NCBI GenBank assembly: GCA_021814005.1
Contig: JAKAJC010000002.1
Location: 4,325-68,324 of the forward strand
Reading direction: 5' to 3'
DNA: 64,000 nucleotides
From: Candidatus Micrarchaeota archaeon
GTDB lineage: Archaea; Micrarchaeota; Micrarchaeia; Anstonellales; Anstonellaceae
Made by a program: the position numbers and the translations under genes. Positions 3,226-62,416 of this stretch are shown here, in pieces. The number at the start of each line of letters is the position of its first letter. The first letter of the stretch is position 1. The notes below the pieces were generated by a model. That model saw nothing but the letters and a program-made list of their open reading frames with translations, did no database searches and was not told where the DNA came from.

Positions 3226-4173
3226 CTAGGCCCTCTCCCATTCCCCCCGCCTTTTTTCAATCACTTCTCCCTCGTCTGCCATAATCATCAGGATAACACT
3301 GACCGCCTCGCCCGGCAATCCGAGCGCAGATGCGATTTTCTCGGCAGTGGCCGGGCCGGCGTCAAGCTGGGCCAGCACAAGGCCTGCATACTGGTGCAAA
3401 AACGAGCGGCGCAGCACATAATATCGTTTGTCAAATCCGCGTATGCCGCGCACGTCGTCGCTTTTGAGCATGGGCGCAATCTGCATCATGGCCATCTTGG
3501 CCTCTGTCTCGGTGTTCAGCACCATGTATCCGAATTTGGCCAGATGGTCTGCGCTGTTAATCGGCGGCATGCCTGAAGAGGAAGAGGGATAGGCAAGAGG
3601 AACAGACGCAACCGCTGTTTTTGCTGCAGATTCGGATGCGGGTTGTTCAGTTTTTTTGGAAGAAATTACAATCGGGGGAGAAACAGCCTCATACACCCTC
3701 TGGCTGATGTTGTACACTCCCTCCTTGTATTTGGCGCTCTTGAACACCTCGATAAGGCGGCGCGCCACCAGCGCGTCAAGCGTTTTCTTCTCGGCCGCAT
3801 TGATTTTTTTCGCCACCTGCGGCACCGTGCGCTCCTCAAAGCGTATTGTGAGAAGTTTTCGCACCATTGAAGTTTCTTCTGGGGAAAGAAGCACCGCCGG
3901 AGAGCGGGATGCGGCCGCGCCTGCGGATTTTTTCGAAACAGCAGCGGGCTGAATTTTTTCTTTTTCAGCCCCCTCCTCCTTTTTCTCGTCAAATTTCTCA
4001 AGAGCGCCGGATTCTGTGAGCAGCACCACGCCTTTGCGCAGCACCCACACATCCACCTCGTCGCCGCCGGAGAGCGCGGCCAGTGCTGCAGGCGGCAGGG
4101 TTATCTGTCCGGCCGTTGCGGTGCGTTTGATGGTGGCTCTCATGCGCGTCGTCTCCTTTTCATCTTTTTTCAT
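3226..4173 (-). CDS. Hypothetical protein with N-terminal AbrB/SpoVT-like swapped-hairpin region and predicted winged-helix C-terminal modules
   Basis: The N-terminal stretch (MRATIKRTATAGQITLPPAALAALSGGDEVDVWVL) resembles an AbrB/MazE-type DNA-binding hairpin. The C-terminus has wH-like segments (LVLAQLDAGPATAEKIASALGLPGEAVSVILMIMADEGEVIEK). The codon usage is coherent. Confidence 0.5.
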   Translation of the reverse strand: MKKDEKETTRMRATIKRTATAGQITLPPAALAALSGGDEVDVWVLRKGVVLLTESGALEKFDEKKEEGAEKEKIQPAAVSKKSAGAAASRSPAVLLSPEETSMVRKLLTIRFEERTVPQVAKKINAAEKKTLDALVARRLIEVFKSAKYKEGVYNISQRVYEAVSPPIVISSKKTEQPASESAAKTAVASVPLAYPSSSSGMPPINSADHLAKFGYMVLNTETEAKMAMMQIAPMLKSDDVRGIRGFDKRYYVLRRSFLHQYAGLVLAQLDAGPATAEKIASALGLPGEAVSVILMIMADEGEVIEKRRGEWERA

Positions 4174-4205
4174 CTTGTTTTCTTGTTTTTCTCATTTTGT
4201 TTTTA

Positions 4206-4826
4206 TCAGCGGACAAGGGGCTTTTTCGCCACCTTTCCTTCAGGCTTTTCCTCTGCAAATATTTCAGCGCCAAATGTCCAGATTTTCGCCGACGGGCTCT
4301 TCCACATGTCCCTTGGCAGACCCGCCTTTTCGCAGACAGCCTCTAAGAACTCTTGGGTGGTGAAATTCCACTCAAGCGCGACCTGCGGCAGCAGCAGGCC
4401 CGAGGCTCCGCCGTATTGTATGATGAGCCCGTCCTGCCCTATTTTTACCGCGGCCCGCCGTCCGGCCTCGTCTTTTGCCTTGATTGGCGCCGGCACCGTG
4501 AGCGCGCTCACCTCGAAAATAACAGAAGGCAGCTCCGCGCGCGTCATGGGCGCAAAGCGCGTGTCCTCCAAACCGGCCAGGCGCGCCGCCAGCTCAGTTG
4601 CCTCGTAAAGCCGATGGTCCGGGCGGATGAATCCGATGCAGCCGCGCAGCTCCTCTTTTGGATAAGTGTGAATAGTGACAAAAACCCCCCGCGGCTCCTC
4701 AAGCGAGGCCGGAATTTCGGGAGGGGGTTTTGCGATGCCGGCTTCCTGTACTCCAAGCGCTTTTGACAGCGAGCGGCGGGCCATTTTAACGAGCATGGCG
4801 CCTTCTTCGCTTTTGAGGGCAGGCAT
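4206..4826 (-). CDS. AMMECR1 domain protein
   Basis: It contains the RGCIGFI motif, which matches the AMMECR1 signature (GCIG). It is 206 aa, a typical archaeal size for this family. Confidence 0.8.
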   Translation of the reverse strand: MPALKSEEGAMLVKMARRSLSKALGVQEAGIAKPPPEIPASLEEPRGVFVTIHTYPKEELRGCIGFIRPDHRLYEATELAARLAGLEDTRFAPMTRAELPSVIFEVSALTVPAPIKAKDEAGRRAAVKIGQDGLIIQYGGASGLLLPQVALEWNFTTQEFLEAVCEKAGLPRDMWKSPSAKIWTFGAEIFAEEKPEGKVAKKPLVR

Positions 4827-22896: not shown

Positions 22897-23904
22897 CTAG
22901 TAGCCGTTGTTTATGATTTGCGCCATTTCCTTTCTTTTCTTGATGTCGAGGTTCATGTTGTGCAACTCATTGGGGTCGATGTCGAATCTCCCCCGCTCGT
23001 CTTCTTTTAGTGCGGCCTGTTTTTCTGATTTGGCTTCGATTGCCTCTCTGTGGTCTTTGGCGCGCTGAACCAGGGCCTGCACTCTGGGGTTCATGTTCAC
23101 ATCCATGGTCAAGAGCTCGTTCCTAACCCGCTCAATGCGCCTGGCCTGTTTTTGCGCCTGACCTTCAAGTTCTCTCATGCGAATCTCTTTTGAGTGCTCA
23201 TCGATCTTGCCGCGTATTGCCATCTCTTCAACACTCCTCTTCTCGTCGCTGTGCCAGTACAGAAGGTAGCCGTCGGCCCGCTCGCAGAAGCGCAGGGCAA
23301 CGGCGGTGCTGTAACCCGTGACCAAGTCGGCGATGGAAAGCGACATCTCTATTTTCTCGGCTTTGTTCTTCGCGCGGCCGATATCGTCCTGCTTGTCGTT
23401 AAATATTTCATCGAAGCGCGTTTTCTCGTGCACAAGCGTCTCGGTCCAGGCCTCGGCTTTGTGGTAGCTGGAGGTGACCAGCTCAAGGGCTTCGACATAG
23501 AGGCCGATGTTTGTCACCTGCAGCTTGCCGTTTCCGTTTCCGTTCACGCGCCTGCCGTTTCTGGCTATGACGATAAGGCTTTCCGCGGCGACAGCATTCT
23601 GGCCGAGCTTTTTCGCCTCTTCAGTCACGTTCTTGAGCAGGCCCATCGCGGCAGCCGCATCTCCCTGTTCAAACAGCTGTTTCACGCGCGTATTCATGGC
23701 GAACAGAAATACCCCGACACTCTCCATGCTATTTGGCGGGGATTTCTTGAACTGGGCAAATGTTGTCTCCCACTCCTCCCGTCTTTTCATGGCAGGGTGC
23801 AGGGCGAGATTGACATTGTGCAAAAAGTTTCTGACCTTGCCGGCTTGTTTCACTTCAACGGGTTTGTGCCCGTTATTGCCTAAGCTAACCTTAGAATCAG
23901 TCAT
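22897..23904 (-). CDS. Hypothetical coiled-coil protein immediately upstream of ftsZ
   Basis: 335 aa. The C-terminal half is strongly heptad and charged (EIRMRELEGQAQKQARRIERVRNELL...). No family was recognised. It has the same orientation as ftsZ, 89 bp upstream. Confidence 0.5.
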   Translation of the reverse strand: MTDSKVSLGNNGHKPVEVKQAGKVRNFLHNVNLALHPAMKRREEWETTFAQFKKSPPNSMESVGVFLFAMNTRVKQLFEQGDAAAAMGLLKNVTEEAKKLGQNAVAAESLIVIARNGRRVNGNGNGKLQVTNIGLYVEALELVTSSYHKAEAWTETLVHEKTRFDEIFNDKQDDIGRAKNKAEKIEMSLSIADLVTGYSTAVALRFCERADGYLLYWHSDEKRSVEEMAIRGKIDEHSKEIRMRELEGQAQKQARRIERVRNELLTMDVNMNPRVQALVQRAKDHREAIEAKSEKQAALKEDERGRFDIDPNELHNMNLDIKKRKEMAQIINNGY

Positions 23905-24427: not shown

Positions 24428-26032
24428 TCAGTCCTGTTTTATCTTGTTTTTATTCTCGAAAATATGCAGCGGGCCGTTGGTCCATCTCTGCTCGAACGGC
24501 GCGGGCACCATGCTGGCATTCTCGCACGCGCCAACCCGCATCACAACATAATCATAATCCTCGCCAATCCGCGTCCAGTTGAGCGTTTGGTAATACTCTT
24601 TCCAATACTTGCATTTCTCCTGTGTTGGCTTTGCAAACACCTTGTATGCCAAATCCCCGATTGCGCCGTTCAATTCAAGCCTCTCGTTTGCCGCCGGCTC
24701 CTTGAACTGGACCGGCGTATATCCTTCGGCAAATATGTATGGCACATATACCCCTTTTTGCACCACCCAGTAGCCCCACGCGTGGAAATAGGGGCTCACA
24801 CCGCCCTGCTCGCCGCTCATGGCAAATCCCTCGCCAATCGGCAACACCGTCACATTTGACCCGCCGGCAAGATGGTCTGCAACCGACGCGATTGCCTCAA
24901 TGTGCGGCTGCTCGGCCGCCCATCCGGCCATCATCACGCCCATTTCGGCCAGCGTGAAAATGAGAAGTGCAATAGTCAATTCCGAAATCAGCTGTTTGGC
25001 GCCCCGCTCGGCCAGCGGCTTGAACATGGCCGCCGCCATCGCGAAAATAAAGAAAGGCCACAGGCGCGGGGCCGCAAACTGCCAGCTTGCCGTGCTCTCG
25101 GGCAGCAGCATTGCGCCCGCGGCCAGAAGCGCGGCAACCGCCAGCCACGCGCCGGCAGGCATTCCGCCTTTTTTCTCGGAGCGCATCCAGATGATGATGT
25201 CGGTCGCCACTATGACGAAAAAGATTATGCTGAGCGCCGGATTCGGCGGAACGTGGAGAAGATAATTGAATTTTTGCAAAGCCCCGCCCCAAACCATCTG
25301 CCCGCCCTGCTCGGGGGCAAGAATGGGGCCGAGGGAGAGAACCGCAATGGCCAGAACAGGCAGTGCAAATGCCAAATCCCATCTGATGTTTTTGAAAAGA
25401 GAATCAAGGCCGTCTTTCGCGCTCTTTCTTTTCCATGCCGCCTGTCCGGCTTCGACAAGGCGCATCACTCCAATGACTCCGACAAGCACCGCTCCGGCCA
25501 CGATATGGGTGATGGTCGCAAAAACAGAGAGAAAAACAGCCAGCACAATGCTTTTCGCGCCTCTTTCCCCCGCCGATTTCATCCAATATCCTGCCGCAAT
25601 CAAAAACAATGGTATGCACAGCGCGTAATTGAGAAACCCCATGAGGAAAAACCAGTTGTAGGCCAGCGCAGCGCCAAGCGCGCCTCCAAGCGGCTCGAGC
25701 GTTGGCTCGATTTTGCGCATGAAATAGGCGGCCCCCCAGATGCTGAGGATTATAGTGATGGAAAGCAGCAGCCGGCCGCTTGCCTCCACTCCGGCAAACG
25801 GGCCCAAAACCCGCATGAACCAGAAATCTGTCGAATTGGGCAGAAGCAGGTTCGGGTTTGCCTGCATGTAAGAGGGCCTGCCGGCATCGTTTTCAATTAC
25901 CATGCGCACTCCGGCCAGATGGTTGGGCCAGTCGTTGAGCGGCAGGAAATGGAAATACCAGATTGGGATGAGAAGAAGAATTGTGAATATGGCGAGGGCC
26001 CAGAACCACCATGGTTTTGACGGAATTCGCAT
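24428..26032 (-). CDS. Polytopic integral membrane protein, possible GT-C fold glycosyltransferase
   Basis: 534 aa with at least 12 TM helices. An early loop has an acidic/aromatic motif (PLNDWPNHLAG), and the C-terminal soluble domain is about 100 aa. It lies next to a Wzx-like flippase. The function is inferred from topology only. Confidence 0.45.
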   Translation of the reverse strand: MRIPSKPWWFWALAIFTILLLIPIWYFHFLPLNDWPNHLAGVRMVIENDAGRPSYMQANPNLLLPNSTDFWFMRVLGPFAGVEASGRLLLSITIILSIWGAAYFMRKIEPTLEPLGGALGAALAYNWFFLMGFLNYALCIPLFLIAAGYWMKSAGERGAKSIVLAVFLSVFATITHIVAGAVLVGVIGVMRLVEAGQAAWKRKSAKDGLDSLFKNIRWDLAFALPVLAIAVLSLGPILAPEQGGQMVWGGALQKFNYLLHVPPNPALSIIFFVIVATDIIIWMRSEKKGGMPAGAWLAVAALLAAGAMLLPESTASWQFAAPRLWPFFIFAMAAAMFKPLAERGAKQLISELTIALLIFTLAEMGVMMAGWAAEQPHIEAIASVADHLAGGSNVTVLPIGEGFAMSGEQGGVSPYFHAWGYWVVQKGVYVPYIFAEGYTPVQFKEPAANERLELNGAIGDLAYKVFAKPTQEKCKYWKEYYQTLNWTRIGEDYDYVVMRVGACENASMVPAPFEQRWTNGPLHIFENKNKIKQD

Positions 26033-35457: not shown

Positions 35458-36969
35458 ATGCGTGGGATGATTTTTCTAACTCTGGCAATTTTCTTCACAG
35501 TTCTGCTGCCTCTTGCGCACGCGCAGTCTGTGCCGAGCGAAATCGCAAGCACGATTGAGCTCAACATGGACCTCACATCGCAAACGCTCTCTTCTGAAGG
35601 CTCGTCAGTGCAGCTTCTCTCGCTCGACGGCCGCCCGAGCTTTATAGTCGAGAACAACCTGCTCGTGCGCGACCCTGTCCGCATTCAGGCGATTTTGGAA
35701 AAAAACATCTCCCTCACCTCGGGCTTTTATGGCGCAATCGCCACAACGCGCGATTCGCTCAACGATTTGCAGGCAATCCGCGCCGCGCCCGAAGCCCACT
35801 GCGCCCAGTATATGGCAGTGGACCGCTTCCCCTGCTTTGACAAGACGAGCTGTGTCAAGGCGGCGCAGGCAAACCCCCAGACCACAGTCATGATAAACGC
35901 CGAGGGCTTCTGGCAGGCGATGGTGGACTGGCAGATGCGCCGCACAGACTTCAATGACAGCATCAACTCGCTCAACGCAACGCTTCAATCAATGTCGCCG
36001 ACGCCCGCTTACTCGAGCGGAGTGCAGGCGGGCATGAACGACGTGCAGGCGAAATTCGACGCGTTCATGCACAACGACCTCTACCGCACCCGCTATGACG
36101 CTGACTGCACCAAATTCAACCGCTCAACCTGCTTCGAGTTCTGCGCCCGCACCAACTGGACCGGCTACTCGAACTGGACTGCCACCGCCGCCTCATGGTC
36201 TGCGGTCAACTCGCGCCTGAACAGCATGGGCTCGCAGTCCTCGCGCGCGCAGGAACTTGCGCAGGCCACCTCCGACTGGCTGAACTATTCCAAAAACCGG
36301 CAGGCGATTTGGGCCGCCATGAACAATGACATGGCCGCGCGAACTGCTTCAATTGACGGAAACATAAGCGCGGCAAACGGCTCCTGGTCCGACCCCGGCC
36401 TCTCGGCCGACATCTCGGCATGGAAAAATTCGCTCAACAGCACGCGCGCTCTCGCGGTGCAGGGCCGCTTCCGCGCCGCTCTTGACACCAAGCCGCAGCT
36501 TGTGAACCAGTCCGACCGGCTGCTGAGCCGCATCACAGACCACCAGACGCGCATGGAGCACATAACCAACAGCATCAAATCAACCCGCTTGGCAGTGGCT
36601 CAGCTGGTCAAATCATCAAACAACCAGTCGGCCACCTTTGCAGCCAGCCTTGCTTCTCTTGAGCAGGCGGCCAAGCCGCCGATTCCGTCAGACCAGCTTC
36701 CCGCCCTTGAAAACCAGTCGTCAAATCTTGAGCAGCTGACCCTTTCCGAAGTCGCCCGCGCGGCCCTCGGCGCCCCGCCGGCGGCCCACGACACTGGCGC
36801 AGAGGCGCAGGCAATCGCGGCAAATCTTAGCAACGGGACTAACGCAAGCGGCAATGCGACACTGGCGCCATCTGCTGTCAAGATTTCCCTGCCGTTCGGC
36901 CTGCAATGCCCGGTTTCGATAGGCCTCATCGGCCTCATCGGCCTGCTCGCCGCTCTTCGCTCGAGGTAA
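35458..36969 (+). CDS. Secreted, heavily N-glycosylation-sequon-rich cell-surface (S-layer-like) glycoprotein with C-terminal PFG-TM-RSR anchor
   Basis: The signal peptide is MRGMIFLTLAIFFTVLLPLAHA|QS. More than 20 N-x-S/T sequons are present (NISLTS, NDSINSLNATLQS, NRST, NWTGYSNWT, NYSKN, NGSWS, NSLNSTR, NQSD, NQSATF, NQSSN, NLSNGTNASGNATL). The C-terminus is LPFGLQCPVSIGLIGLIGLLAALRSR, a tripeptide, a TM helix and a basic tail, as in the PGF-CTERM class. Confidence 0.6.
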   Translation: MRGMIFLTLAIFFTVLLPLAHAQSVPSEIASTIELNMDLTSQTLSSEGSSVQLLSLDGRPSFIVENNLLVRDPVRIQAILEKNISLTSGFYGAIATTRDSLNDLQAIRAAPEAHCAQYMAVDRFPCFDKTSCVKAAQANPQTTVMINAEGFWQAMVDWQMRRTDFNDSINSLNATLQSMSPTPAYSSGVQAGMNDVQAKFDAFMHNDLYRTRYDADCTKFNRSTCFEFCARTNWTGYSNWTATAASWSAVNSRLNSMGSQSSRAQELAQATSDWLNYSKNRQAIWAAMNNDMAARTASIDGNISAANGSWSDPGLSADISAWKNSLNSTRALAVQGRFRAALDTKPQLVNQSDRLLSRITDHQTRMEHITNSIKSTRLAVAQLVKSSNNQSATFAASLASLEQAAKPPIPSDQLPALENQSSNLEQLTLSEVARAALGAPPAAHDTGAEAQAIAANLSNGTNASGNATLAPSAVKISLPFGLQCPVSIGLIGLIGLLAALRSR

Positions 36970-43630: not shown

Positions 43631-43930
43631 GTGGTTCGGATGTTCGTATATCAGGGGGTCACAGTCGAAAAAACGAAAAAATCTGACGAAAGCAATAAGA
43701 CACCGATCCATCGGAATGTAATAGAGGCATTCATCGTGTTGGGACCTAGCGGCAAGCAGTTCAGGTCAGAAAGTGACAAGCAACTCTGGATAAAGGTCGA
43801 TTCTGCCCAATTCTATTCGCAATTAACCCCGCAACAGCGCAAGGAATTCGACGAATTTGACAAAAAATATGGTCATGACTCAACAAGTGCAAAATCTGAT
43901 ACACTCAGAATCGTGCCAAAAAAGAAGTAA
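43631..43930 (+). CDS. Hypothetical small protein encoded in a low-GC islet
   Basis: 99 aa, Lys/Glu/Ser-rich (…FDEFDKKYGHDSTSAKSDTLRIVPKKK). The surrounding ~450 bp has visibly lower GC than its flanks. Confidence 0.4.
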   Translation: MVRMFVYQGVTVEKTKKSDESNKTPIHRNVIEAFIVLGPSGKQFRSESDKQLWIKVDSAQFYSQLTPQQRKEFDEFDKKYGHDSTSAKSDTLRIVPKKK

Positions 43931-43958: not shown

Positions 43959-44816
43959 TTATTCCACTCGAATACTGATGGGGATTGTGATGTTCTCGCC
44001 CGGCAAGTCCGAGCCGGCGGCCGGCACGGCGCTGATGGTGAGGTAGCCCGCCCGCAGGCCGGGCGTGATGGAGGAAATCGTCACAATGGCCGTCTGGGCG
44101 GCCCCAGATGCGAGGTCCCCGTTCGTGCCGTCATAGGCGCAGCTGACGGTTCCGGAAGGGCAGCTCAGCGTTTGGGCGAGAGTATAAGTCACGTTGGCCC
44201 GGTTGCTGATGAGCAGGCGGGTGGAATTGGCCGGCCCGCCATTCGGGATTCTCATGTAGATGCCAGTTATGTTCACCACCAGCCCTCCAGCCGGGCGGAT
44301 GAGCACGTGCGTGCCGTTGTTGTAGACCGAAGCATAGAACCGCCCCGTCTTGAGCGGCCACTGCCCGCTCACGTTCATCGGCAGCGAGCGCGAGACGTCT
44401 CCAATCCCGCTGATGTTGAGCGAGAGCGTGCGGCCGGCTATCCTGCTTGTCGCCAGGTCGGCAGCATCGGGAATGTCAACCGTCATCTTCTGTTCTGCCC
44501 CTGCCCCGGCCGCCCAGACCTCCTGCGCCGCCCCGGCCAGCACGCTTAAACTGTGCGCGGCCGTGCGCTGCTGCACCACTATGCCCTGCTGCGCATACTG
44601 GCCCATGAACACGATGACGAGGACGAGCAGTATGAGCAGCATGGCCGCCGTGAGCATGAGATACTCCAAAGAAACTTGTCCGCACGGGGCCCGGCCCCGC
44701 GAGACCTGAGCGCGCAGGACCTGGCCCCGCGAGACCTGAGCGCGCAGGACCTGGCCCCGCGAGACCTGAGCGCGCAGGACCTGGCCCAGCGAATTTTGGC
44801 CGCGTGGTGTTTTCAT
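43959..44816 (-). CDS. Archaeal type IV pilin-like protein (DUF361/EppA-substrate class) with a repeat-expanded leader
   Basis: The class III signal is ...RG RAPCG|QVSLEYLMLTAAMLLILLVLVIVF (G-1, Q+1, E+5 and a hydrophobic helix). The mature domain is beta/Gly-rich with N-x-S/T sites. The leader contains the motif RGQVLRAQVS three times. Confidence 0.7.
   Translation of the reverse strand: MKTPRGQNSLGQVLRAQVSRGQVLRAQVSRGQVLRAQVSRGRAPCGQVSLEYLMLTAAMLLILLVLVIVFMGQYAQQGIVVQQRTAAHSLSVLAGAAQEVWAAGAGAEQKMTVDIPDAADLATSRIAGRTLSLNISGIGDVSRSLPMNVSGQWPLKTGRFYASVYNNGTHVLIRPAGGLVVNITGIYMRIPNGGPANSTRLLISNRANVTYTLAQTLSCPSGTVSCAYDGTNGDLASGAAQTAIVTISSITPGLRAGYLTISAVPAAGSDLPGENITIPISIRVE
44701..44790. repeat. 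Perfect 30-bp direct tandem repeat x3 (GAGACCTGAGCGCGCAGGACCTGGCCCCGC) with degenerate flanking partial copies
   Basis: Read directly: copies at 44701-730 and 44731-760 are identical, and copy 44761-790 has a single change. A partial copy lies at 44681-700. The repeat is in frame (10 codons) within the pilin leader on the minus strand. Confidence 0.85.
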
Positions 44817-44858
44817 ATACCTGCTTCGAGCGGGCGGTTTTTAATTCTGGAGGCGCTT

Positions 44859-45473
44859 ATGGCCTTTATGCAACTGGCGGTCTATCCTCCCCTGCGTCCG
44901 GCGCTTGATTTGGCCCTTGCCATCAGCCGCTCCGGCGGCGTTGTGGTATATCCCACAGACACGGTCTACGGGGTGGGCGGGGACGCCACCAATGCCGCCG
45001 TGGTGTCGCGCATCATTTTGCTCAAAAGCCGGCCAGCCAACCAGCCGATGACCGTGCTGTTCCCGGACTGGGCCATGGCGCAGGACTATGTGAAAATGGA
45101 TTCGGCCCTGCGAAAAGCCCTCGAAGAACTCACGCCCGGGCCCTACACCTTCCTCCTGCCTCTTGCCAAAGCCCTGCCCGTCACCTCCAGCCCCCTCATC
45201 GGCTGCCGCGTGCCCTCGCACGAGTTCTGCCTTGCGTGGGCCAAGGGGTTGGGCAAGCCGATTATCACCACCTCGGCCAACCGCCACCAGTCGCCCCCCG
45301 CGCGCGCCATTGAGGAGCTGGACGAAACTATCGCGACCGGCGCGGACCTCATAGTGGACGGCGGGCCGTCGCAGAGCGAGACCGGCTCCACCATCATCGA
45401 CGTTCCCCGCAAACGGATTTTGCGCGAGGGCGCGGAACTCGCCAAAGCCAAAGCATGGCTGAAGAAGTTGTGA
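44859..45473 (+). CDS. tsaC: L-threonylcarbamoyladenylate synthase (TsaC/YrdC/Sua5 family)
   Basis: YPTDTVYGVGGDA (YrdC signature), ...TSANRHQSP... and a length of 204 aa. The start is ATG 44859, preceded by GGAGG. The tool's 44553 start is an antisense artefact over the pilin repeats. Confidence 0.8.
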   Translation: MAFMQLAVYPPLRPALDLALAISRSGGVVVYPTDTVYGVGGDATNAAVVSRIILLKSRPANQPMTVLFPDWAMAQDYVKMDSALRKALEELTPGPYTFLLPLAKALPVTSSPLIGCRVPSHEFCLAWAKGLGKPIITTSANRHQSPPARAIEELDETIATGADLIVDGGPSQSETGSTIIDVPRKRILREGAELAKAKAWLKKL

Positions 45474-47821: not shown

Positions 47822-48043
47822 GATGCCACCTCTAAGGTGCCGCCATTGACGCGACGATGCACTTCTTAGTGCTCCTTAATAAGTATTTTCTTATAAAGCT
47901 TTGCGAGGAACGCTTGCGCCGACGACGTGGCGGGCAGAATTCAAACATAAGGGGGACCCATCGACGGGGCTTTTGGCCCTATCGGCCCCCATCTCCCGGC
48001 CGTCGTATAACATGTTGGCGCATGGTTCATGTGTGTGGTAAAA
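47822..48043. promoter_or_regulatory. Candidate replication origin region (oriC) between sepF and orc1/cdc6
   Basis: Intergenic 222 bp. An AT-rich segment (CTTAATAAGTATTTTCTTATAAAGCTTT, about 47873-47903) is flanked by G-string elements of similar sequence in opposite orientation (GGGGGACCCATCGACGGGG near 47950, and rc GGGGGCCGATAGGGCC near 47975). Position next to orc1 is the common archaeal arrangement. Confidence 0.3.
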
Positions 48044-49402
48044 ATGCCGTCTTTCGATGACATCCTGTCGGCCCCCACCCTGTTCGCAGACAGGGGCGTG
48101 CTTTCGCCTCACTGGGTGCCGGATGTTCTGCCTTTCCGCGAAAAGGAAACAACGCGTATCATGACGGCCGTGGCCCCCGCCCTTGCGCACGAGCGCTCCC
48201 GCAACCTTTTCATCTACGGCAAGACCGGCACGGGCAAGACCTGCACGGTCCGAAAAGTCATGGCAGAATTCGAGGCAAGAAAATCATCCGCCCGCTCCTG
48301 CTACATCAACTGCCGCATGTACAATTCGCGTTATCGTGTCATCCAGAAAATGGCCAAGGATTTTGTTCCCGAACTTGACCGCTCGGGTTTTGGGCTCAAC
48401 ACTCTTTACGAGAAAATGATGGAATGGATTTCGCTCGACGAATCAGCCCCGACACCAAAAACCGGCAGGCGCGTGGTGGTTGTGCTTGACGAGGTGGACA
48501 TGGTGCGGGATTTGGACGAGCTGCTCTACACCCTCACACGCATGAATGACGAGTTGCAGGCCGGCTCCATCTCCATAATCGGCATAACAAACCGCCTCTC
48601 GTTCAAGGACGCGCTCGACCCGCGCTCCAAATCCTCGCTTTGCGAAACAGAAATGGTGTTTACCCCCTACTCCCCCAGCCAGCTGCGCGAAATATTGGCG
48701 CGGCGCACAGAAATGGGATTCAAGAAGGGGGTGGTGGAAGACTCGGCCATAAACTTGGCTGCCGCCATAGCCGCGCAGGAAACAGGAGACGCGCGCTATG
48801 CGCTCAAACTTCTCTTGCGCGCAGGTGAAATTGCCGATGAAAAGCACCGCCCGCACATAACTCACACTGAAGTGGAGGAGGCGCGCCGCTCGGTTGATGT
48901 TGATTTGGCTGCTGAAACCATTGCAACCTTGCCTGTTCACCAGCAGCTGGTTCTTTTGGCTGTATGCAACTTGTCATTAGAGGGCCAGCGCTATGCGCGT
49001 CTGGGCGGCACGCCATCCAACAATCAGGCAGACGGCGAGCATCATCTCATGTCGGGCGAAGTGTATGAAGAATACTCGCGCCTGTGCCGCACATACAAAA
49101 AGCCCAAGCGCTCGGCGCGCTGGTATCGTGAATATCTCAATGATTTGGAAATGCTGGGGCTCATCACCACAGTGGAATCAGGCCGCGGCATGCGCGGGCG
49201 CACCCGCCTTATCCGCCCAGGCTACTCGCCCGAGCAGATGAAAAAAATAATCGAAAAAAGCGCCGCCATCCACGGGCCGGATGACGCCATGCCTGATTTG
49301 CCGGAGGGCAAGGGCGGCCATTCCTCACTTTCCAAAATAGACGGCCAACTCTCTCTGGGCCGCTCGGACGGACAGGTGTCGAATTCCAAGCCGGCGTGGT
49401 GA
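48044..49402 (+). CDS. orc1: Orc1/Cdc6 replication initiator (paralogue 1)
   Basis: Walker A YGKTGTGKT, Walker B VVVLDEVD, sensor regions and a C-terminal winged helix (…GRGMRGRTRLIRPGYS…), followed by a Gly/Ser tail. Confidence 0.9.
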   Translation: MPSFDDILSAPTLFADRGVLSPHWVPDVLPFREKETTRIMTAVAPALAHERSRNLFIYGKTGTGKTCTVRKVMAEFEARKSSARSCYINCRMYNSRYRVIQKMAKDFVPELDRSGFGLNTLYEKMMEWISLDESAPTPKTGRRVVVVLDEVDMVRDLDELLYTLTRMNDELQAGSISIIGITNRLSFKDALDPRSKSSLCETEMVFTPYSPSQLREILARRTEMGFKKGVVEDSAINLAAAIAAQETGDARYALKLLLRAGEIADEKHRPHITHTEVEEARRSVDVDLAAETIATLPVHQQLVLLAVCNLSLEGQRYARLGGTPSNNQADGEHHLMSGEVYEEYSRLCRTYKKPKRSARWYREYLNDLEMLGLITTVESGRGMRGRTRLIRPGYSPEQMKKIIEKSAAIHGPDDAMPDLPEGKGGHSSLSKIDGQLSLGRSDGQVSNSKPAW

Positions 49403-54441: not shown

Positions 54442-55215
54442 TCAAATTCGGATGCTCATCCTATCCACGGCGGCAGTGCTGGCTGAAAAAATCCTGCGCG
54501 CCGCCGCCTGTGTTTGCAGCCTGTCTCCCTTTGTTTTGCACAGGTTTGCGGCAAAATGGGTGAGGTAGAGGTGCCCCGCGCCCGCATCTTTGGCCGCCTG
54601 CGCGGCCATTTCGGGATTGAGGTGCGGCCATGAGGGGGAGCTGGGCTGGCCGCTCATCAGCCCGCATTCTGTAATAAGAATGTCGGCATTTTTCGCCAGC
54701 GCGCCAAGATTTTCGCACGGGCCGGTGTCTGTGCAATACGCAATAGTCTTTCCTCCCAATTCGAACCTGTACCCCCAGCAGGGGTCTGCGTGCACCAGCG
54801 GCGCGCAGCGCACAGAATATTCGTCAATGCGGTTGTCGCCCTCGCGCAATTCGTTTATCTGCACGTCAAATCCGCTTTTGCGAAGCATATCGTATGATGC
54901 AGTGTAGGGGCTGGCCACCAGAGCGCCCAGCCACTTCTTGGTGCCGGGCATTCCGAAAATTCTTATCTTGTTTTTCATCAGCCTGAATTTGGGCTGTATG
55001 TGCAGGCCGATTGTGTGGTCAAGATGAAAATGCGAAAGAAAAATGTCAATCGGCTTGGAAGAGTCTACTGCATATTCGTCGAGACGCCAAATCCCGTCAC
55101 CTGCATCCAACACAATATATCTTTTTGGTGTCTCGATGAGCGCGCACACAGTGTTTGCAAGCGGAGTGGCGTACCAGCCGTTGGTGCCAAGAAAAACAAG
55201 GCGCATGTCTGTCAT
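54442..55215 (-). CDS. MBL-fold metallo-hydrolase (RNase Z/ElaC-short-like)
   Basis: LVFLGTNGW...HFHLDHTIGL (HxHxDH) and a C-terminal His; 257 aa. Confidence 0.7.
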   Translation of the reverse strand: MTDMRLVFLGTNGWYATPLANTVCALIETPKRYIVLDAGDGIWRLDEYAVDSSKPIDIFLSHFHLDHTIGLHIQPKFRLMKNKIRIFGMPGTKKWLGALVASPYTASYDMLRKSGFDVQINELREGDNRIDEYSVRCAPLVHADPCWGYRFELGGKTIAYCTDTGPCENLGALAKNADILITECGLMSGQPSSPSWPHLNPEMAAQAAKDAGAGHLYLTHFAANLCKTKGDRLQTQAAARRIFSASTAAVDRMSIRI

Positions 55216-56676: not shown

Positions 56677-58752
56677 ATGTGGCTTCTGCAGGCTGAAATC
56701 TTCAAGCGGGGCGGGCCGGCGCAGAAACAGCCATCCCCATTTTCAGAACAGGGCCTGTCTGTGCAGGGCCTTCAGGCGCAGGATGTTTTCTTCTGCGGCT
56801 GGGATTATGCATCCAAGCCCCTGCCTCCCCTCGCATCCATTTTCAAGCCAGACCCCAACTTCGTGCTGCAGGACCCGTCAGTCATTAAGATTTCGGGCAA
56901 CTCGCTCGTCACCTCAATCACTGTGCAGGGGGTGCAAAAGCAGCAGTTTGAAATGCCGTCCTACGTGGCCGGAACGCGCTCCAAGGTAAAGCACACCGGA
57001 CAGGCTGCAGACGCAATCCGCGACCTCGACGAGCGGCTTGCCGAGTACGGCCACCTGTCAGGCGGAGAGAGAATAGTCGTCCAGCTGCCCCTCGAGCTGG
57101 CCGGCGCGGCAGGCCAGCAAATCAACGATGACGTTAGAAACACCCTGATTTCGGGAGTCAAGCGCTCGATTCAGCGCCATGCCGGCGTGGCAGATGCTGA
57201 CGCCTACATGCAGGCAAATAACATCGAAATCGAGGTGCGCGCAGGCACGGTGTCGGGGCCCCAGTTCGCGGCCTCTGTGCTGCGCCTGGATTTGGATGCA
57301 GCCGGATTTGACGCGCTCAAAAAAGGCCTGGCCGAATACGCCGTTCTTCCGCCCGAAACAATCGCATTGATTCATGGGGCCAAAACCGGGCAGGAGCTGG
57401 CCAAAATACTGGGCGCCAACCAGGGCCCGGTGCAGTTTAATCAGGGATATCAGAAATATCCTGTCATCGACCGAGTCTTCGACCTCTCGCGGCAGGTTGT
57501 GGTTTACAATCCGTTCGAATTCCATGTTGAAGTGCAGGCAGACGAAATCAGGGTGCGGCTGCAGCACCAGCCCAACGACCCGTCTAAAATATCAAAACGA
57601 TTCGAGGAGCTCAACAACCAGCGGGTTTTCCTCTTCTCCTACGACGCCAACGGAAACGAAATCCGCACCCAGTGCAAGTTTGTTTACAGCAAATCAAACG
57701 GCGAGGCAAGCGTGTGCGACAACTCCGGCAGGCCGGTCCCGCTCAGCTCGTTTTTGGCCGGCAGCACGGAGCGCCCGGTTCCGGTCGGCTCCAGCATCGC
57801 GCTCTCGCTCGAAGGGGTGAATATCGAGTACCGCCTCTTCAAGATTGGCGAGACGCGGGTGCCGCCGGTAATCACAAAAACCATTCCAAAAATGCCTCCC
57901 AATGTCCCGCAGTTCTCCGGCCTGCTCTCAAGCGAGCTGTCAATCCAGTACGGCGCGCTGGACAACACCGGCCCGGGTTTCAAGGACAAAGACTTCGATT
58001 TGGTGAACAGGGGCATGCAGTCCACCCCGCACTCATTCCCGATAAAAACCGGCACGCAGGACCAGTCGGTCATCGGCATCAACGAGGTGCATGTTGGCAC
58101 CTATCGCGTCGTGATGCAGGAAGAGGGTGACGACTCTTTCAGCATTGTCCTCAAAAACGACCAGTTCGACCGCCTTTCCAGCCCCGGCAACAGGCCAAAA
58201 GACGATTACGGCCGGATTCGCGTGAATGATTTGCTGCACCAGTCAAAACCGCCGTCGCGCGTGGACATCAAAGACCCCCACGTGAAGCATGACTCCAATA
58301 GCTTCTATTACGAAATCTCTGACCCGCTTGTGATGATGGTGGACATCTCAAAGCCGTTGTCGAACTTCCAGTCGCAGGGCGGGGAAGTGAAGACTGCCGC
58401 GCTGCAGATGTTTGTGGACGACTTCCAGGCCCGCAAATGGGGCAGCCATTTCACAGTCATGCTCAACGGCATGCCTGCGCCTTTCATCTCCAATGTGCTC
58501 AACCAGCTGGACCAGTCGGGCCCGGTGGAGCAGATGGTAACGATTCCAATCCCGCCCGAATATATCGATGCAATCAAAAGCGGCAAGCTGACCATCTCAA
58601 TCAACGAGACTACTGGCAAGGGAGACGGCTATGCTATAGACGCGCTCTTTTTGTACATCAACCCGGACCAGGCCATGCTGGACAAGCAGGCGGCGACCGA
58701 AGCCAGAAGCAGGACGGCCACACCGCAGAACCAGCCAGGCAGACGCCGCTAG
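56677..58752 (+). CDS. Large orphan protein (691 aa), no recognisable domain, no TM/signal, no NTPase motifs
   Basis: Long ORF with coherent composition and no overlapping plausible alternative. The N-terminal start is uncertain. It ends 67 bp before orc1/cdc6-2. Confidence 0.5.
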   Translation: MWLLQAEIFKRGGPAQKQPSPFSEQGLSVQGLQAQDVFFCGWDYASKPLPPLASIFKPDPNFVLQDPSVIKISGNSLVTSITVQGVQKQQFEMPSYVAGTRSKVKHTGQAADAIRDLDERLAEYGHLSGGERIVVQLPLELAGAAGQQINDDVRNTLISGVKRSIQRHAGVADADAYMQANNIEIEVRAGTVSGPQFAASVLRLDLDAAGFDALKKGLAEYAVLPPETIALIHGAKTGQELAKILGANQGPVQFNQGYQKYPVIDRVFDLSRQVVVYNPFEFHVEVQADEIRVRLQHQPNDPSKISKRFEELNNQRVFLFSYDANGNEIRTQCKFVYSKSNGEASVCDNSGRPVPLSSFLAGSTERPVPVGSSIALSLEGVNIEYRLFKIGETRVPPVITKTIPKMPPNVPQFSGLLSSELSIQYGALDNTGPGFKDKDFDLVNRGMQSTPHSFPIKTGTQDQSVIGINEVHVGTYRVVMQEEGDDSFSIVLKNDQFDRLSSPGNRPKDDYGRIRVNDLLHQSKPPSRVDIKDPHVKHDSNSFYYEISDPLVMMVDISKPLSNFQSQGGEVKTAALQMFVDDFQARKWGSHFTVMLNGMPAPFISNVLNQLDQSGPVEQMVTIPIPPEYIDAIKSGKLTISINETTGKGDGYAIDALFLYINPDQAMLDKQAATEARSRTATPQNQPGRRR

Positions 58753-58818: not shown

Positions 58819-59931
58819 TTGATGGCCTCAAACATTTTCAAGCAGATGGCGTCCTCGGGCGGCATCTTCCGTGACGAGTCGGTGCTGCAGCCCGATTTTC
58901 TCCCCGAAGAAATGCCTGGCCGCGAGCGGCAGATGCGCGATTTGGCCTCATTTCTGCAGCCCGTCACCCGCAATCAGGCGCCCTCAAGCGTTCTCATAGT
59001 GGGCTCGCCCGGGCTTGGCAAAACCACCATGGCAAAGCTTGTGCTAAAGCAGCTTGGCGAGGTTTCCAAGCGCGCCCTGCCCATTTACATCAACTGCTGG
59101 GAAACCTCCACCCGTTTCGGCATACTCAACGAGCTGGTTACTGCTTTGGGCGACATGCTGCCGCGGCGCGGCATAGCAGTCGACGAAGTGGTTGCGCGGC
59201 TCAAGGAAATCGGGCGGCGCGAGCAGTGCCCGCTTCCAATTGTTGTGCTGGACGAGGTTGACCGCCTTCTTGCCTCAAACGCGCGCGAAGACCAGGTGCT
59301 CTATGATTTGTCGCGCAGCGCCGAGGCGCTCGGCCTGCCCTGCGCTGTCATCGGCATCACAAACGATGTCGAGCTGCCAATGAAACTGGACGCGCGCGTG
59401 CGCTCCTCCCTTACAAACCATGTCATCAATTTCTCGCCCTACAACCCGACCGAGCTGAAAAGCATTCTAGGCGAGAGGGCGAAGCGGGCTTTCCAGCCCT
59501 CAGCCCTTGATTCCGAAGTCATTCCCCTGTGCGCCGCAGTGGGGGCAAAGGCGGGCGGAGACGCGCGCATTTCCATTCATCTTCTCTGGGCAGCGGCACG
59601 GGCAGCCGACAGCGAGGGGGCATCAAAAGTCGGCATTGCGCATGTCAAGGCAATGCAGGCCTCGGCGCTTGAAGCAGCCGCCATTCCGGCTTCGCGCAAA
59701 ATAAATGATTTGGACGAGATGGACCGCAAGCTGGTTCAGCTGATTTCAAAATCCGCCGATTCAGGCCTTTCATCTGGCGAGCTTTATGCAAAGCTCAAGG
59801 CCGGAGAGGCCGAACAGCGCACTTTGCGCAACCGCCTCGCGCGCCTTGAAAAAGGCGGGCTTATCACAGGCGAGGAAATCGACAAGGCCGGCGGGCATAC
59901 GCGCAGATGGAAGATTCGAAAGACTGCATAA
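58819..59931 (+). CDS. Orc1/Cdc6 replication initiator (paralogue 2)
   Basis: Walker A VGSPGLGKTT, Walker B VVLDEVDRL, and a C-terminal winged helix (…RLEKGGLITGEEIDKAGGHTRRWKI); 370 aa. Confidence 0.85.
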   Translation: MMASNIFKQMASSGGIFRDESVLQPDFLPEEMPGRERQMRDLASFLQPVTRNQAPSSVLIVGSPGLGKTTMAKLVLKQLGEVSKRALPIYINCWETSTRFGILNELVTALGDMLPRRGIAVDEVVARLKEIGRREQCPLPIVVLDEVDRLLASNAREDQVLYDLSRSAEALGLPCAVIGITNDVELPMKLDARVRSSLTNHVINFSPYNPTELKSILGERAKRAFQPSALDSEVIPLCAAVGAKAGGDARISIHLLWAAARAADSEGASKVGIAHVKAMQASALEAAAIPASRKINDLDEMDRKLVQLISKSADSGLSSGELYAKLKAGEAEQRTLRNRLARLEKGGLITGEEIDKAGGHTRRWKIRKTA

Positions 59932-61408: not shown

Positions 61409-62416
61409 TCAAACCATCTCGAACAAGTCGAGGCGCATTTCCACTCCCAGAGCTCCGGCCAGCGCGCCTGCAGTCACAATGCTTATCACAAGCGAAATTA
61501 GGGGATAAACAATTGCGTAAAGATTTAGCACGCCCAAAAATGCTGCCACGGGAGCGTAAAGATTTAGCGAGCGGGCGGCCAAATCCTTGCCGTCCACCCC
61601 CATTGTCGCATTCATCATGTCGCCGGGCTTGTCCCAGTCAATGATTGGCAGTGTCTGCATCACCGCCTTCTCATTCTGCGTCCATGCGTCCATCACCGCC
61701 CCCTGTGCCGCGGCCAGCGGCCCGCCGGCCACTAGCGCCGCATAGAGCATCGGATAAACAAGGAAAAACGCAATTGCCGCGCCCATTATCGCCGCGCCAA
61801 GCTTTCGCGTTGGGAAAAACATGCGCAGCAAAAGGCCGGCAGGCAGGAACAGGTTGAATCCCTGCATTGCAGTCATAGCCAGAAATTCGCGCTGTGTCTG
61901 CAAAAGCGCCTGCGTGTTTGCAAGAGATGCGGCCCAGTCTGCATAAGTTCGCGCCGGCCATTCCAGAGCCTTGAACGGGGTGGAAGTGAGCACATTGGCA
62001 GAAAGAGTGAGGCCAGACAAATAAGCAAATTTGTATGAGTGGCTCATGAGCGCCATGCTCACATTCTGCGCCCCGCCGGCCGCCTGCTCAAGTGTGCAGA
62101 GCGATGCATTCATTGCAGAATGCGTTGCTGCCGAAGAAATGTTGGCTGTTGTGTTGCAGTTGAGAATTGTGCCTGCCGGCACTGTGGATGAAACAAACAC
62201 GCTGGATGTCACGGTGAGGCCGACAAGCGCGCCCAGAATGGCGGCATTGAATATTGCCTGCCCCAATTCTTCGGCCCCCCACGCCCACAGCTTGCGGCTG
62301 CCCAAAGCCCTGCCTATGCCCAAGGCAATGCCCGCGAAAAGAATGCTGATAACGACTAAATCAATTGCCAAAGTCCAGGCCGAGCCGCCTGGTGCGAGTT
62401 CGGCAGCCAAAGCCAT
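61409..62416 (-). CDS. Polytopic membrane protein, unknown function (third gene of a 3-gene membrane operon)
   Basis: 335 aa, about 7 TM helices, with a central Ser/Thr/Asn/Cys-rich extracytoplasmic loop. It lies 9 bp after the upstream small gene. Confidence 0.5.
   Translation of the reverse strand: MALAAELAPGGSAWTLAIDLVVISILFAGIALGIGRALGSRKLWAWGAEELGQAIFNAAILGALVGLTVTSSVFVSSTVPAGTILNCNTTANISSAATHSAMNASLCTLEQAAGGAQNVSMALMSHSYKFAYLSGLTLSANVLTSTPFKALEWPARTYADWAASLANTQALLQTQREFLAMTAMQGFNLFLPAGLLLRMFFPTRKLGAAIMGAAIAFFLVYPMLYAALVAGGPLAAAQGAVMDAWTQNEKAVMQTLPIIDWDKPGDMMNATMGVDGKDLAARSLNLYAPVAAFLGVLNLYAIVYPLISLVISIVTAGALAGALGVEMRLDLFEMV

Follow-up and report, generated by a model that had tools for sequence, protein, structure and literature searches.

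The leader peptides of prepilins are usually short and unique in sequence, and are regarded as unremarkable. Repeats in the export-signal region are known from the opa genes of Neisseria, where slippage of CTCTT units of 5 nucleotides (nt) in the signal-peptide region shifts the reading frame and acts as an on/off switch. In-frame variable-number tandem repeats (VNTRs) of prokaryotic surface-protein genes are usually found in the exposed part of the mature protein and alter its length or antigenicity. Ultra-small archaea are believed to use pili for contact with their hosts. A prepilin keeps its hydrophilic leader in the cytoplasm while the hydrophobic helix spans the membrane, and the peptidase cuts after a conserved Gly at the cytoplasmic face; prepilin leaders comprise 6–26 amino acids (aa), and their shortening is harmless in some systems (PMC4471445). 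Here we describe a preprotein gene with a class III (type IV pilin-like) signal from a Candidatus Micrarchaeota archaeon, which carries in its leader a tandem array whose copy number differs between otherwise identical genomes. The gene occupies positions 43959..44816, minus strand, of a 64,000-nt stretch (assembly GCA_021814005.1, contig JAKAJC010000002.1, positions 4,325 to 68,324), hereafter the window, to which all coordinates refer unless a locus is named. The variation most likely reflects weak constraint on the length and sequence of the leader, not a switch.

Results

A tandem array in the leader

The gene encodes 285 aa from an ATG start at 44816. Its leader, M1–G46 (44679..44816, minus strand), comprises 46 aa and owes its length to in-frame repeats; the initial annotation had estimated about 45 aa for the same reason. 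Lengths were counted through the Gly at position −1. According to Tandem Repeats Finder, a recent, copy-variable 30-bp array extends over 44693..44792 on the minus strand (period 30, 3.3 copies, 98% matches, score 193). It encodes the decapeptide RGQVLRAQVS three times, so that the open reading frame (ORF) and the repeat first described are both confirmed by the ORF list, the translation and the repeat search. The translation runs MKTPRGQNSLGQVL(RAQVSRGQVL)x2 RAQVSRGRAPCG↓QVSLEYLMLTAAM..., where the arrow marks the predicted cleavage site. A 15-nt period is nested under the 30-bp repeat (5.4 copies, 69% matches).

Parsed by codons, and with the help of the repeat search and the orthologous site, the full array consists of nine 15-nt units (44670..44804, minus strand): RGQNS, LGQVL, RAQVS, RGQVL, RAQVS, RGQVL, RAQVS, RGRAP and CGQVS. 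The N-terminus is thus written MKTP-RGQNS-LGQVL-RAQVS-RGQVL-RAQVS-RGQVL-RAQVS-RGRAP-CG↓QVSLEYLMLTAAMLLILLVLVIVFMG, and the ninth unit holds the predicted cleavage site G46↓Q47. The repeats carry R-G-Q-V or R-A-Q-V and read as copies of the site codons at the DNA level, as expected from the earlier proposal that each repeat recreates a cleavage motif. Each added 30-bp unit brings two consensus-like pseudo-sites. The leader contains nine Arg or Lys and no acidic residue, and residues 1–48 are predicted to be disordered, with an AlphaFold pLDDT (predicted local distance difference test) of about 30.

Site and leader statistics were derived from the 144 listed family representatives in which a site could be recognised. 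Their median leader is 7 aa, compared with 46 aa here; at least 26 aa are found in nine representatives, and at least 46 aa in only two. No Rfam RNA family was matched at the repeat. No second strong tandem repeat exists in the 64-kb window, the only other match with a score of at least 60 being a weak 22-bp repeat at 4157–4207. That repeat (2.4 copies, 76% matches) covers the 5′ end of an ORF at 3226–4173 and adjoining intergenic DNA.

Copy-number alleles

Three alleles were found in public data, with leaders of 46, 36 and 26 aa. The 3-copy allele of 285 aa is present on 6–7 contigs of separate assemblies, including GCA_027348425.1. The same 90% cluster contains a 275-aa form with two copies (three contigs) and a 265-aa form with one copy (one contig), which differ from the 285-aa form solely by one or two RGQVLRAQVS units. 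Apart from unit number, the flanks are 100% identical to the window over 6.8 kb in locus L002 (two copies) and 20.8 kb in locus L008 (one copy), and the few BLAST mismatches fall where alignments overlap within the repeat. The contigs of these two alleles measure 59,484 and 59,454 bp, a difference of exactly 30. As the alleles differ in otherwise identical DNA, the locus changes much faster than surrounding substitutions accrue. The recent expansion and variable copy number anticipated in the initial annotation are therefore borne out by 1-, 2- and 3-copy alleles within identical flanking DNA.

The allele data come from short-read metagenome assemblies, in the form of MEGAHIT k141 contigs. Given the workings of the assembler, a single k-mer or read should reach across each allele, since the tract does not exceed 100 nt and the k-mer measures 141. 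The 1-copy form is probably ancestral, because the sister lineage L007 has a leader of 26 aa, and the 2- and 3-copy forms are probably recent expansions from it.

Differing copy number in otherwise identical genomes is a property of contingency loci. On/off switching is another, and is not seen here: the unit is a 30-nt in-frame block downstream of the start, and the spacing between promoter and ATG is unchanged. Phase variation in the on/off sense, which had been suggested for this gene, is thus not supported, as all changes are multiples of 30 nt and keep the frame.

Origin of the units and leaders of orthologues

The two components of the repeat resemble the cleavage site of orthologues. 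CGC GCT CAG GTC TCG is identical at 13 of 15 positions, and CGG GGC CAG GTC CTG at 12 of 15, to CGC GGC CAG GTC TCG, the site sequence of loci L005 and L009. This comparison indicates that all nine units are derived from the cleavage-site unit R-G-Q-V-S.

The leaders of orthologues span 5–27 aa, with lengths of 5–6, 11–13, 16–17, 20–21 and 25–27 aa. Counted through the Gly at −1, they measure 27 aa in P0002, 26 aa in P0007 (with a corrected start, see below), 21 aa in P0005, 17 aa in P0008, 12–14 aa in P0003 and P0006, and 6 aa in P0004 and P0010. Several of them are visibly pentapeptide arrays of decayed RGQVS-like units. The leader of P0005 reads PRDQVS-RGLVS-RAQVS-RG↓QVS and that of P0002 reads RGQVS-PGRVP-CGQIS-RG↓QVS, where the pair PGRVP-CGQIS is the counterpart of RGRAP-CGQVS in the window; the unit structure of both was read at the protein level. 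In L007, older units have decayed to the non-motif sequences FWQAP, RARVC and RGRVF. Such decay argues for relaxed constraint on the leader and not for a conserved function.

Duplicated site segments also occur in distant relatives, namely P0048 (SPRAQF-SPRAQAVIE) and P0092 (LRGQANFGTV-RAQANLETV). Duplication of the site codons is therefore recurrent and tolerated in the family.

Start codon and promoter

Downstream of the ATG at 44816, no in-frame ATG, GTG or TTG occurs before the cleavage site; TTG (L50) and ATG (M54), which would be the next possible starts, are past the site. The codons of G-Q-V-S vary synonymously among orthologues (GGC or GGA, CAG or CAA, GTC, GTG or GTT, TCG, TCC or TCT) while the peptide is constant. 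These codons are therefore translated, and in the window only ATG 44816 can be the start.

An AT-rich TATA-like box, ATTAAAAA on the minus strand (TTTTTAAT as the intergenic box), is located at 44838..44845 and appears to be shared by two divergent genes. It lies 21 nt from the ATG of the pilin-like gene and 22 nt from the ATG (MQL, 44868) of the divergent Sua5 gene. The spacing between box and start is 21–23 nt on both sides in nine of nine loci, independently of leader length. Similar boxes precede other genes of the window, where the 20–24 nt bin is the highest (11 of 39 genes), a modest enrichment. The centre of archaeal TATA boxes lies about 26–27 nt upstream of the transcription start. 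The geometry of the box therefore predicts a leaderless mRNA, whose 5′ end is probably at ATG 44816. A start downstream of the repeats, which the initial annotation had allowed for, can be discounted on sequence grounds, given the missing alternative start and the conserved promoter spacing.

The public gene calls of P0007 (locus L007) and P0009 begin at an internal Met (MLTAAM... and MEYLM..., respectively) and thereby lose the class III signal. In L007 (positions 1402–1500 of that locus), the frame is open from an ATG located 23 nt after a TATA-like box and encodes MEIPRSQVSRARVCFWQAPRGRVFLG↓QVSLEYL. Judged by this frame, the downstream start called for P0007 is an error.

The 51-bp intergenic region, 44817–44867, resembles a bidirectional promoter for two leaderless genes. 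The public call places the start of Sua5 at 44859 (MAF), just 13 nt away from the box, and has probably set it 9 nt too far upstream. A plus-strand ORF, 44553–45473, which crosses the repeat and continues into Sua5, was dismissed, as orthologous Sua5 proteins start at MQL, 22 nt from the box. A role of the repeat as promoter or operator sites of Sua5 was also rejected, since the array lies downstream of the ATG of the pilin-like gene and is absent from orthologues.

Predicted cleavage site and family assignment

The predicted cleavage site, G46↓Q47-V-S, is encoded by GGA CAA GTT TCT (44670..44681, minus strand) and followed by L-E51-Y-L, as deduced from alignment A1 and the family statistics. 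With Gly at −1 and the sequence Q47-V-S-L-E51, it has the Gln at +1 and the acidic residue at +5 of a class III signal. The motif G↓QVS[LM]EY and the hydrophobic helix that follows are kept in ten close homologues. In the family at large, position +1 is Gln in all 144 representatives, position −1 is Gly, Ala or Ser, and position −2 is Lys or Arg in 117. Close orthologues also carry Ser, Val, Leu or Thr at −2.

Against the Pfam family Class_IIIsignal (PF04021), the window protein matches over aa 46–70 with 17.4 bits, below the gathering score of 23.7. The assignment of this gene rests on the ORF list, homologues and this weak match. PF04021 is matched at E < 0.01 by 14 of 30 aligned family members, with a best E of 5e-07. 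An exhaustive search with the mature part as query returned 221 relatives at E ≤ 1e-3 with the same N-terminal motif. The gene is assigned to the family because the family as a whole matches PF04021 and keeps Gln at +1. A profile search with alignment A2 in a 90%-clustered database recovered essentially the same ten relatives, from which it follows that the close clade is small in public data. JGI (Joint Genome Institute) metagenome contigs gave no match when scanned by protein alignment or with a degenerate DNA pattern for GQVS.EY.M. The N-terminal 90 aa used as a protein query yielded one candidate and no match.

Structure of the mature protein

The predicted mature protein consists of 239 aa. 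Its AlphaFold model was computed from a shallow alignment of 11 sequences and has a mean pLDDT of 52.6, so that the usable parts are the N-terminal helix and the C-terminal domain. The hydrophobic helix, aa 50–76 (44589..44669, minus strand), has a pLDDT of about 80, is nearly invariant in orthologues (MLTAAMLLILLVL) and would serve as the transmembrane and assembly helix. The C-terminal domain, aa ~186–285 (43962..44261, minus strand), is modelled with pLDDT values of 66–87 as an immunoglobulin (Ig)-like β-sandwich of the ASH/PapD/MSP type. Foldseek against the PDB retrieved ASH/PapD-like domains with E-values of 1e-6 to 1e-4 over about 105–115 residues; profile matches of this domain to the Ig repeats of HYDIN and FAP47 are weak. 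No solved archaeal pilin was recovered with the sequence profile or Foldseek.

The protein is archaeal and related to Micrarchaeota (DPANN), and one orthologue comes from Hainich groundwater. The designation type IV pilin-like protein is supported, and the product is most likely a surface protein of this type in a Micrarchaeota (DPANN) archaeon. The initial annotation had called it a pilin: the class III signal and the type IV pilin-like character stand, while a pilin in the strict sense is unproven, in view of the housekeeping neighbours and of a 239-aa mature part with an Ig-like domain.

Genomic neighbourhood

The gene is surrounded by those of Sua5, a methyltransferase, GNAT, SpoU, NAD kinase and H+-PPase. 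Orthologues share this synteny. The window as a whole is housekeeping chromosome, with Nre, CysRS, FtsZ, the SUF system, deoxyhypusine synthase, H+-PPase, NAD kinase, Sua5, two Cdc6/Orc1 and Rpb7. It contains no pilus ATPase, platform protein or A24 prepilin peptidase, and no second protein with a class III signal. Pilus machinery and peptidase genes were also absent from about 8 kb past one end of the window, so that the EppA/PibD-like peptidase which the initial annotation had suggested seeking was found in neither. The linkage to a PilB/TadA-type ATPase and a PilC/TadC-type platform protein that identifies structural pilins is not seen at this locus.

Between the pilin-like gene and the NAD kinase gene, the segment 43480–43950 has a GC content of 0.40–0.45, versus about 0.62 in its flanks. 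It holds an ORF of 96–99 aa (43631–43930, plus strand) without Pfam match. This stretch is absent in the P0005 lineage, where the stop of the pilin-like gene is 27 nt from the NAD kinase start, and it may be a small insertion.

Two Cdc6/Orc1-type genes, at 48029–49402 and 58819–59931, are about 10 kb apart. The wider region also encodes SepF and FtsZ, and there might be a replication origin near the Cdc6/Orc1 genes. Five ORFs of 335–691 aa, at 56677–58752, 24428–26032, 35458–36969, 22897–23904 and 61409–62416, have no Pfam match at E ≤ 1e-4. The product of 35458–36969 has a Sec-type signal-like N-terminus (MRGMIFLTLAIFFTVLLPLAHAQ). The ORF at 54442–55215 encodes a metallo-β-lactamase fold, for which the precomputed Pfam assignments are Anti-Pycsar_Apyc1-like (PF23023) and Lactamase_B_2.

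Discussion

A probably tolerated minisatellite in a leader predicted to be discarded

The array is probably a slippage-prone, in-frame minisatellite that is tolerated and near-neutral in a leader that is discarded, a view that we hold with moderate confidence. In the proposed scenario, the 15-nt cleavage-site unit encoding R-G-Q-V-S would have been duplicated in tandem repeatedly to form a tract, in which older units decay. A block of two units, 30 nt, would expand and contract by replication slippage and thus generate alleles of one, two and three copies. Translation of the whole tract would yield a cytoplasmic leader of 46 aa, basic and disordered. Once the protein is inserted in the membrane, only the membrane-proximal G46↓Q47 would be cut, by a prepilin peptidase whose gene would lie elsewhere, and the repeats would leave with the leader; both the cleavage position and the neutrality are deduced here. 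Since the peptidase acts at the cytoplasmic face by the helix (PMC4471445), only G46↓Q47 should be used. Variation would be tolerated because cleavage removes the leader, which is then discarded. Being 30 nt long, the unit cannot switch the gene off by a change of copy number, so that this is not classical phase variation.

Several observations weigh against near-neutrality, or against processing at G46. Position −2 of the predicted real site is Cys45 and lacks the Lys or Arg usual in the family, and the upstream pseudo-sites R-G-Q and R-A-Q fit the family consensus at −2, −1 and +1 better than the real site does. The real site has been recoded away from the repeats, which hints at selection around the array. 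Its codons, GGA CAA GTT TCT, are the only run of four A/T-ending codons of the gene, in which 19% of third positions overall are A or T; all six orthologous loci have GGC CAG GT[C/G] TC[G/C/T]. As a result, the site of the window is identical to the ancestral unit at 8 of 15 nt, versus 12–13 of 15 for the upstream copies. This synonymous recoding, a post hoc observation, may shield the site against slippage or against pairing of the mRNA. Each unit also adds to the mRNA a stable hairpin, predicted at about −20 kcal/mol, with potential consequences if this mRNA is leaderless. Lastly, leaders of 20–27 aa are kept across several diverged lineages (75–83% aa identity) with streamlined genomes, and their persistence is not obviously expected of useless sequence.

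Alternative explanations

These same features bear on the alternative that the array is a functional tuning, or contingency, locus, in which copy number sets the output of the pilin-like protein or the timing of its maturation. It could act through the number of stable 5′-terminal hairpins in a leaderless mRNA, through leader length, or through decoy sites (Arg, then Gly or Ala, then Gln) that compete for the peptidase, and would make the surface filaments of a host-dependent archaeon heterogeneous within one population. Three alleles in otherwise identical genomes, mutating far faster than point substitution, agree with such a role, as do the pseudo-sites closer to the consensus than the real site, the four rare A/T-ending codons of the latter, and the retention of long leaders in several lineages. 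The minimum free energy of the 5′ region falls with copy number, from −54.9 to −73.2 and −96.8 kcal/mol for one, two and three copies, with z = −3.1 relative to shuffled sequences for the 3-copy form. Yet all changes are in frame and provide no on/off switch, older units decay to non-motif sequence, and orthologues with leaders of 5–13 aa evidently function. Moreover, prepilin peptidases act at the membrane face by the helix, and leader shortening is harmless in some systems (PMC4471445). Tuning is therefore regarded as unlikely. The more specific version is somewhat less likely again. It holds that the array is a selected device in which slippage alters the number of decoy motifs and of 5′ hairpins in a leaderless transcript. 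Cells of a clonal population would then make or mature a pilin-like attachment protein at graded rates. With such a device, the synonymous recoding would protect the real site from slippage.

It is improbable that the protein is not processed at all, the basic tract being a permanent cytoplasmic tail of a signal-anchored protein with its N-terminus inside and GQVSLEY a relic. The atypical Cys at −2, the lack of genes for a peptidase or for pilus machinery in the window and in about 8 kb past one of its ends, and the large mature part with an Ig-like domain, unlike a minimal pilin, would fit a protein of this kind. Nevertheless, G↓Q-V-S-x-E-Y is present in every orthologue despite synonymous change, position −2 is not strictly constrained in the clade, where Ser, Val, Leu and Thr occur in close relatives, and the length and sequence of the tail are wholly unconserved, unlike those of a functional domain.

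An assembly artefact, in which a short tandem repeat was collapsed or expanded, comes to mind as the data are all short-read metagenome assemblies. It is very improbable for the repeat or for the copy differences, as the 3-copy form was obtained on 6–7 contigs of separate assemblies and the 2-copy form on three, multi-unit leaders occur independently in orthologues, and the tract of at most 100 nt should fit within the 141-mer of the final MEGAHIT graph. Finally, the idea that the repeats are an untranslated 5′ region before a plain signal-anchor protein starting at TTG L50 or ATG M54 is hardly credible: gene callers did take a downstream ATG in P0007 and P0009, but in L007 an ATG 23 nt past the box opens an upstream frame that is in phase, the GQVS codons vary synonymously while the encoded peptide is conserved, and the 21–23 nt between box and ATG are kept in nine loci regardless of leader length.

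Significance

The array illustrates that a fast-evolving minisatellite can reside in the part of a signal peptide that is predicted to be cleaved. It offers a natural allelic series, with leaders of 26, 36 and 46 aa in one background and of 5–27 aa in orthologues, which makes testable the choice of site by the peptidase, the tolerated length of the leader, and the limitation of translation by 5′ structure in a leaderless mRNA. The repeat is also a possible strain-level marker in metagenomes of ultra-small archaea, and the two orthologues mis-started in public data make such leaders relevant to gene calling. Were tuning true, the locus would exemplify in-frame quantitative contingency variation acting through a class III signal peptide, of which no description was found in the literature searched.

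Comparison with known systems

The closest known systems are the DUF361 (PF04021) proteins, represented by the EppA-type pilins of Methanococcus maripaludis and the type IV pilin-like proteins of DPANN archaea. The window protein shares with them a basic leader that ends in Gly, Gln at +1, Glu at +5, a hydrophobic helix of about 20–25 residues, and a mature part rich in β-strands and N-glycosylation sequons. It differs from them by a leader of 46 aa in place of a median of 7, by the copy-number polymorphic tandem array of site units, by the Cys at −2, and by its location outside any pilus operon.

A long hydrophilic leader is also found in bacterial type IVb and Flp prepilins (15–30 aa), where it is removed by an A24-family peptidase at the cytoplasmic face (PMC4471445); the resemblance to the window protein is confined to leader length. 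Those leaders are unique sequences, without arrays of duplicated sites or copy variation in the literature searched, and the 46 aa of the window exceed the range of 6–26 aa (PMC4471445). Full-text searches returned no case of a prepilin leader or signal peptide with tandem repeats or slippage, an absence that is no proof of novelty.

With the Neisseria opa genes, the locus has in common a slippage-prone repeat in the part that codes for the export signal and a copy number that varies between close relatives. In contrast to opa, the unit measures 30 nt, with a 15-nt sub-unit, and is in frame, so that only the length of the leader changes. In this respect the array resembles the in-frame VNTRs of surface-protein genes, whose units are multiples of three and vary in number between strains by slippage or recombination. 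Unlike in those genes, the repeats here sit in a segment whose removal by cleavage is predicted.

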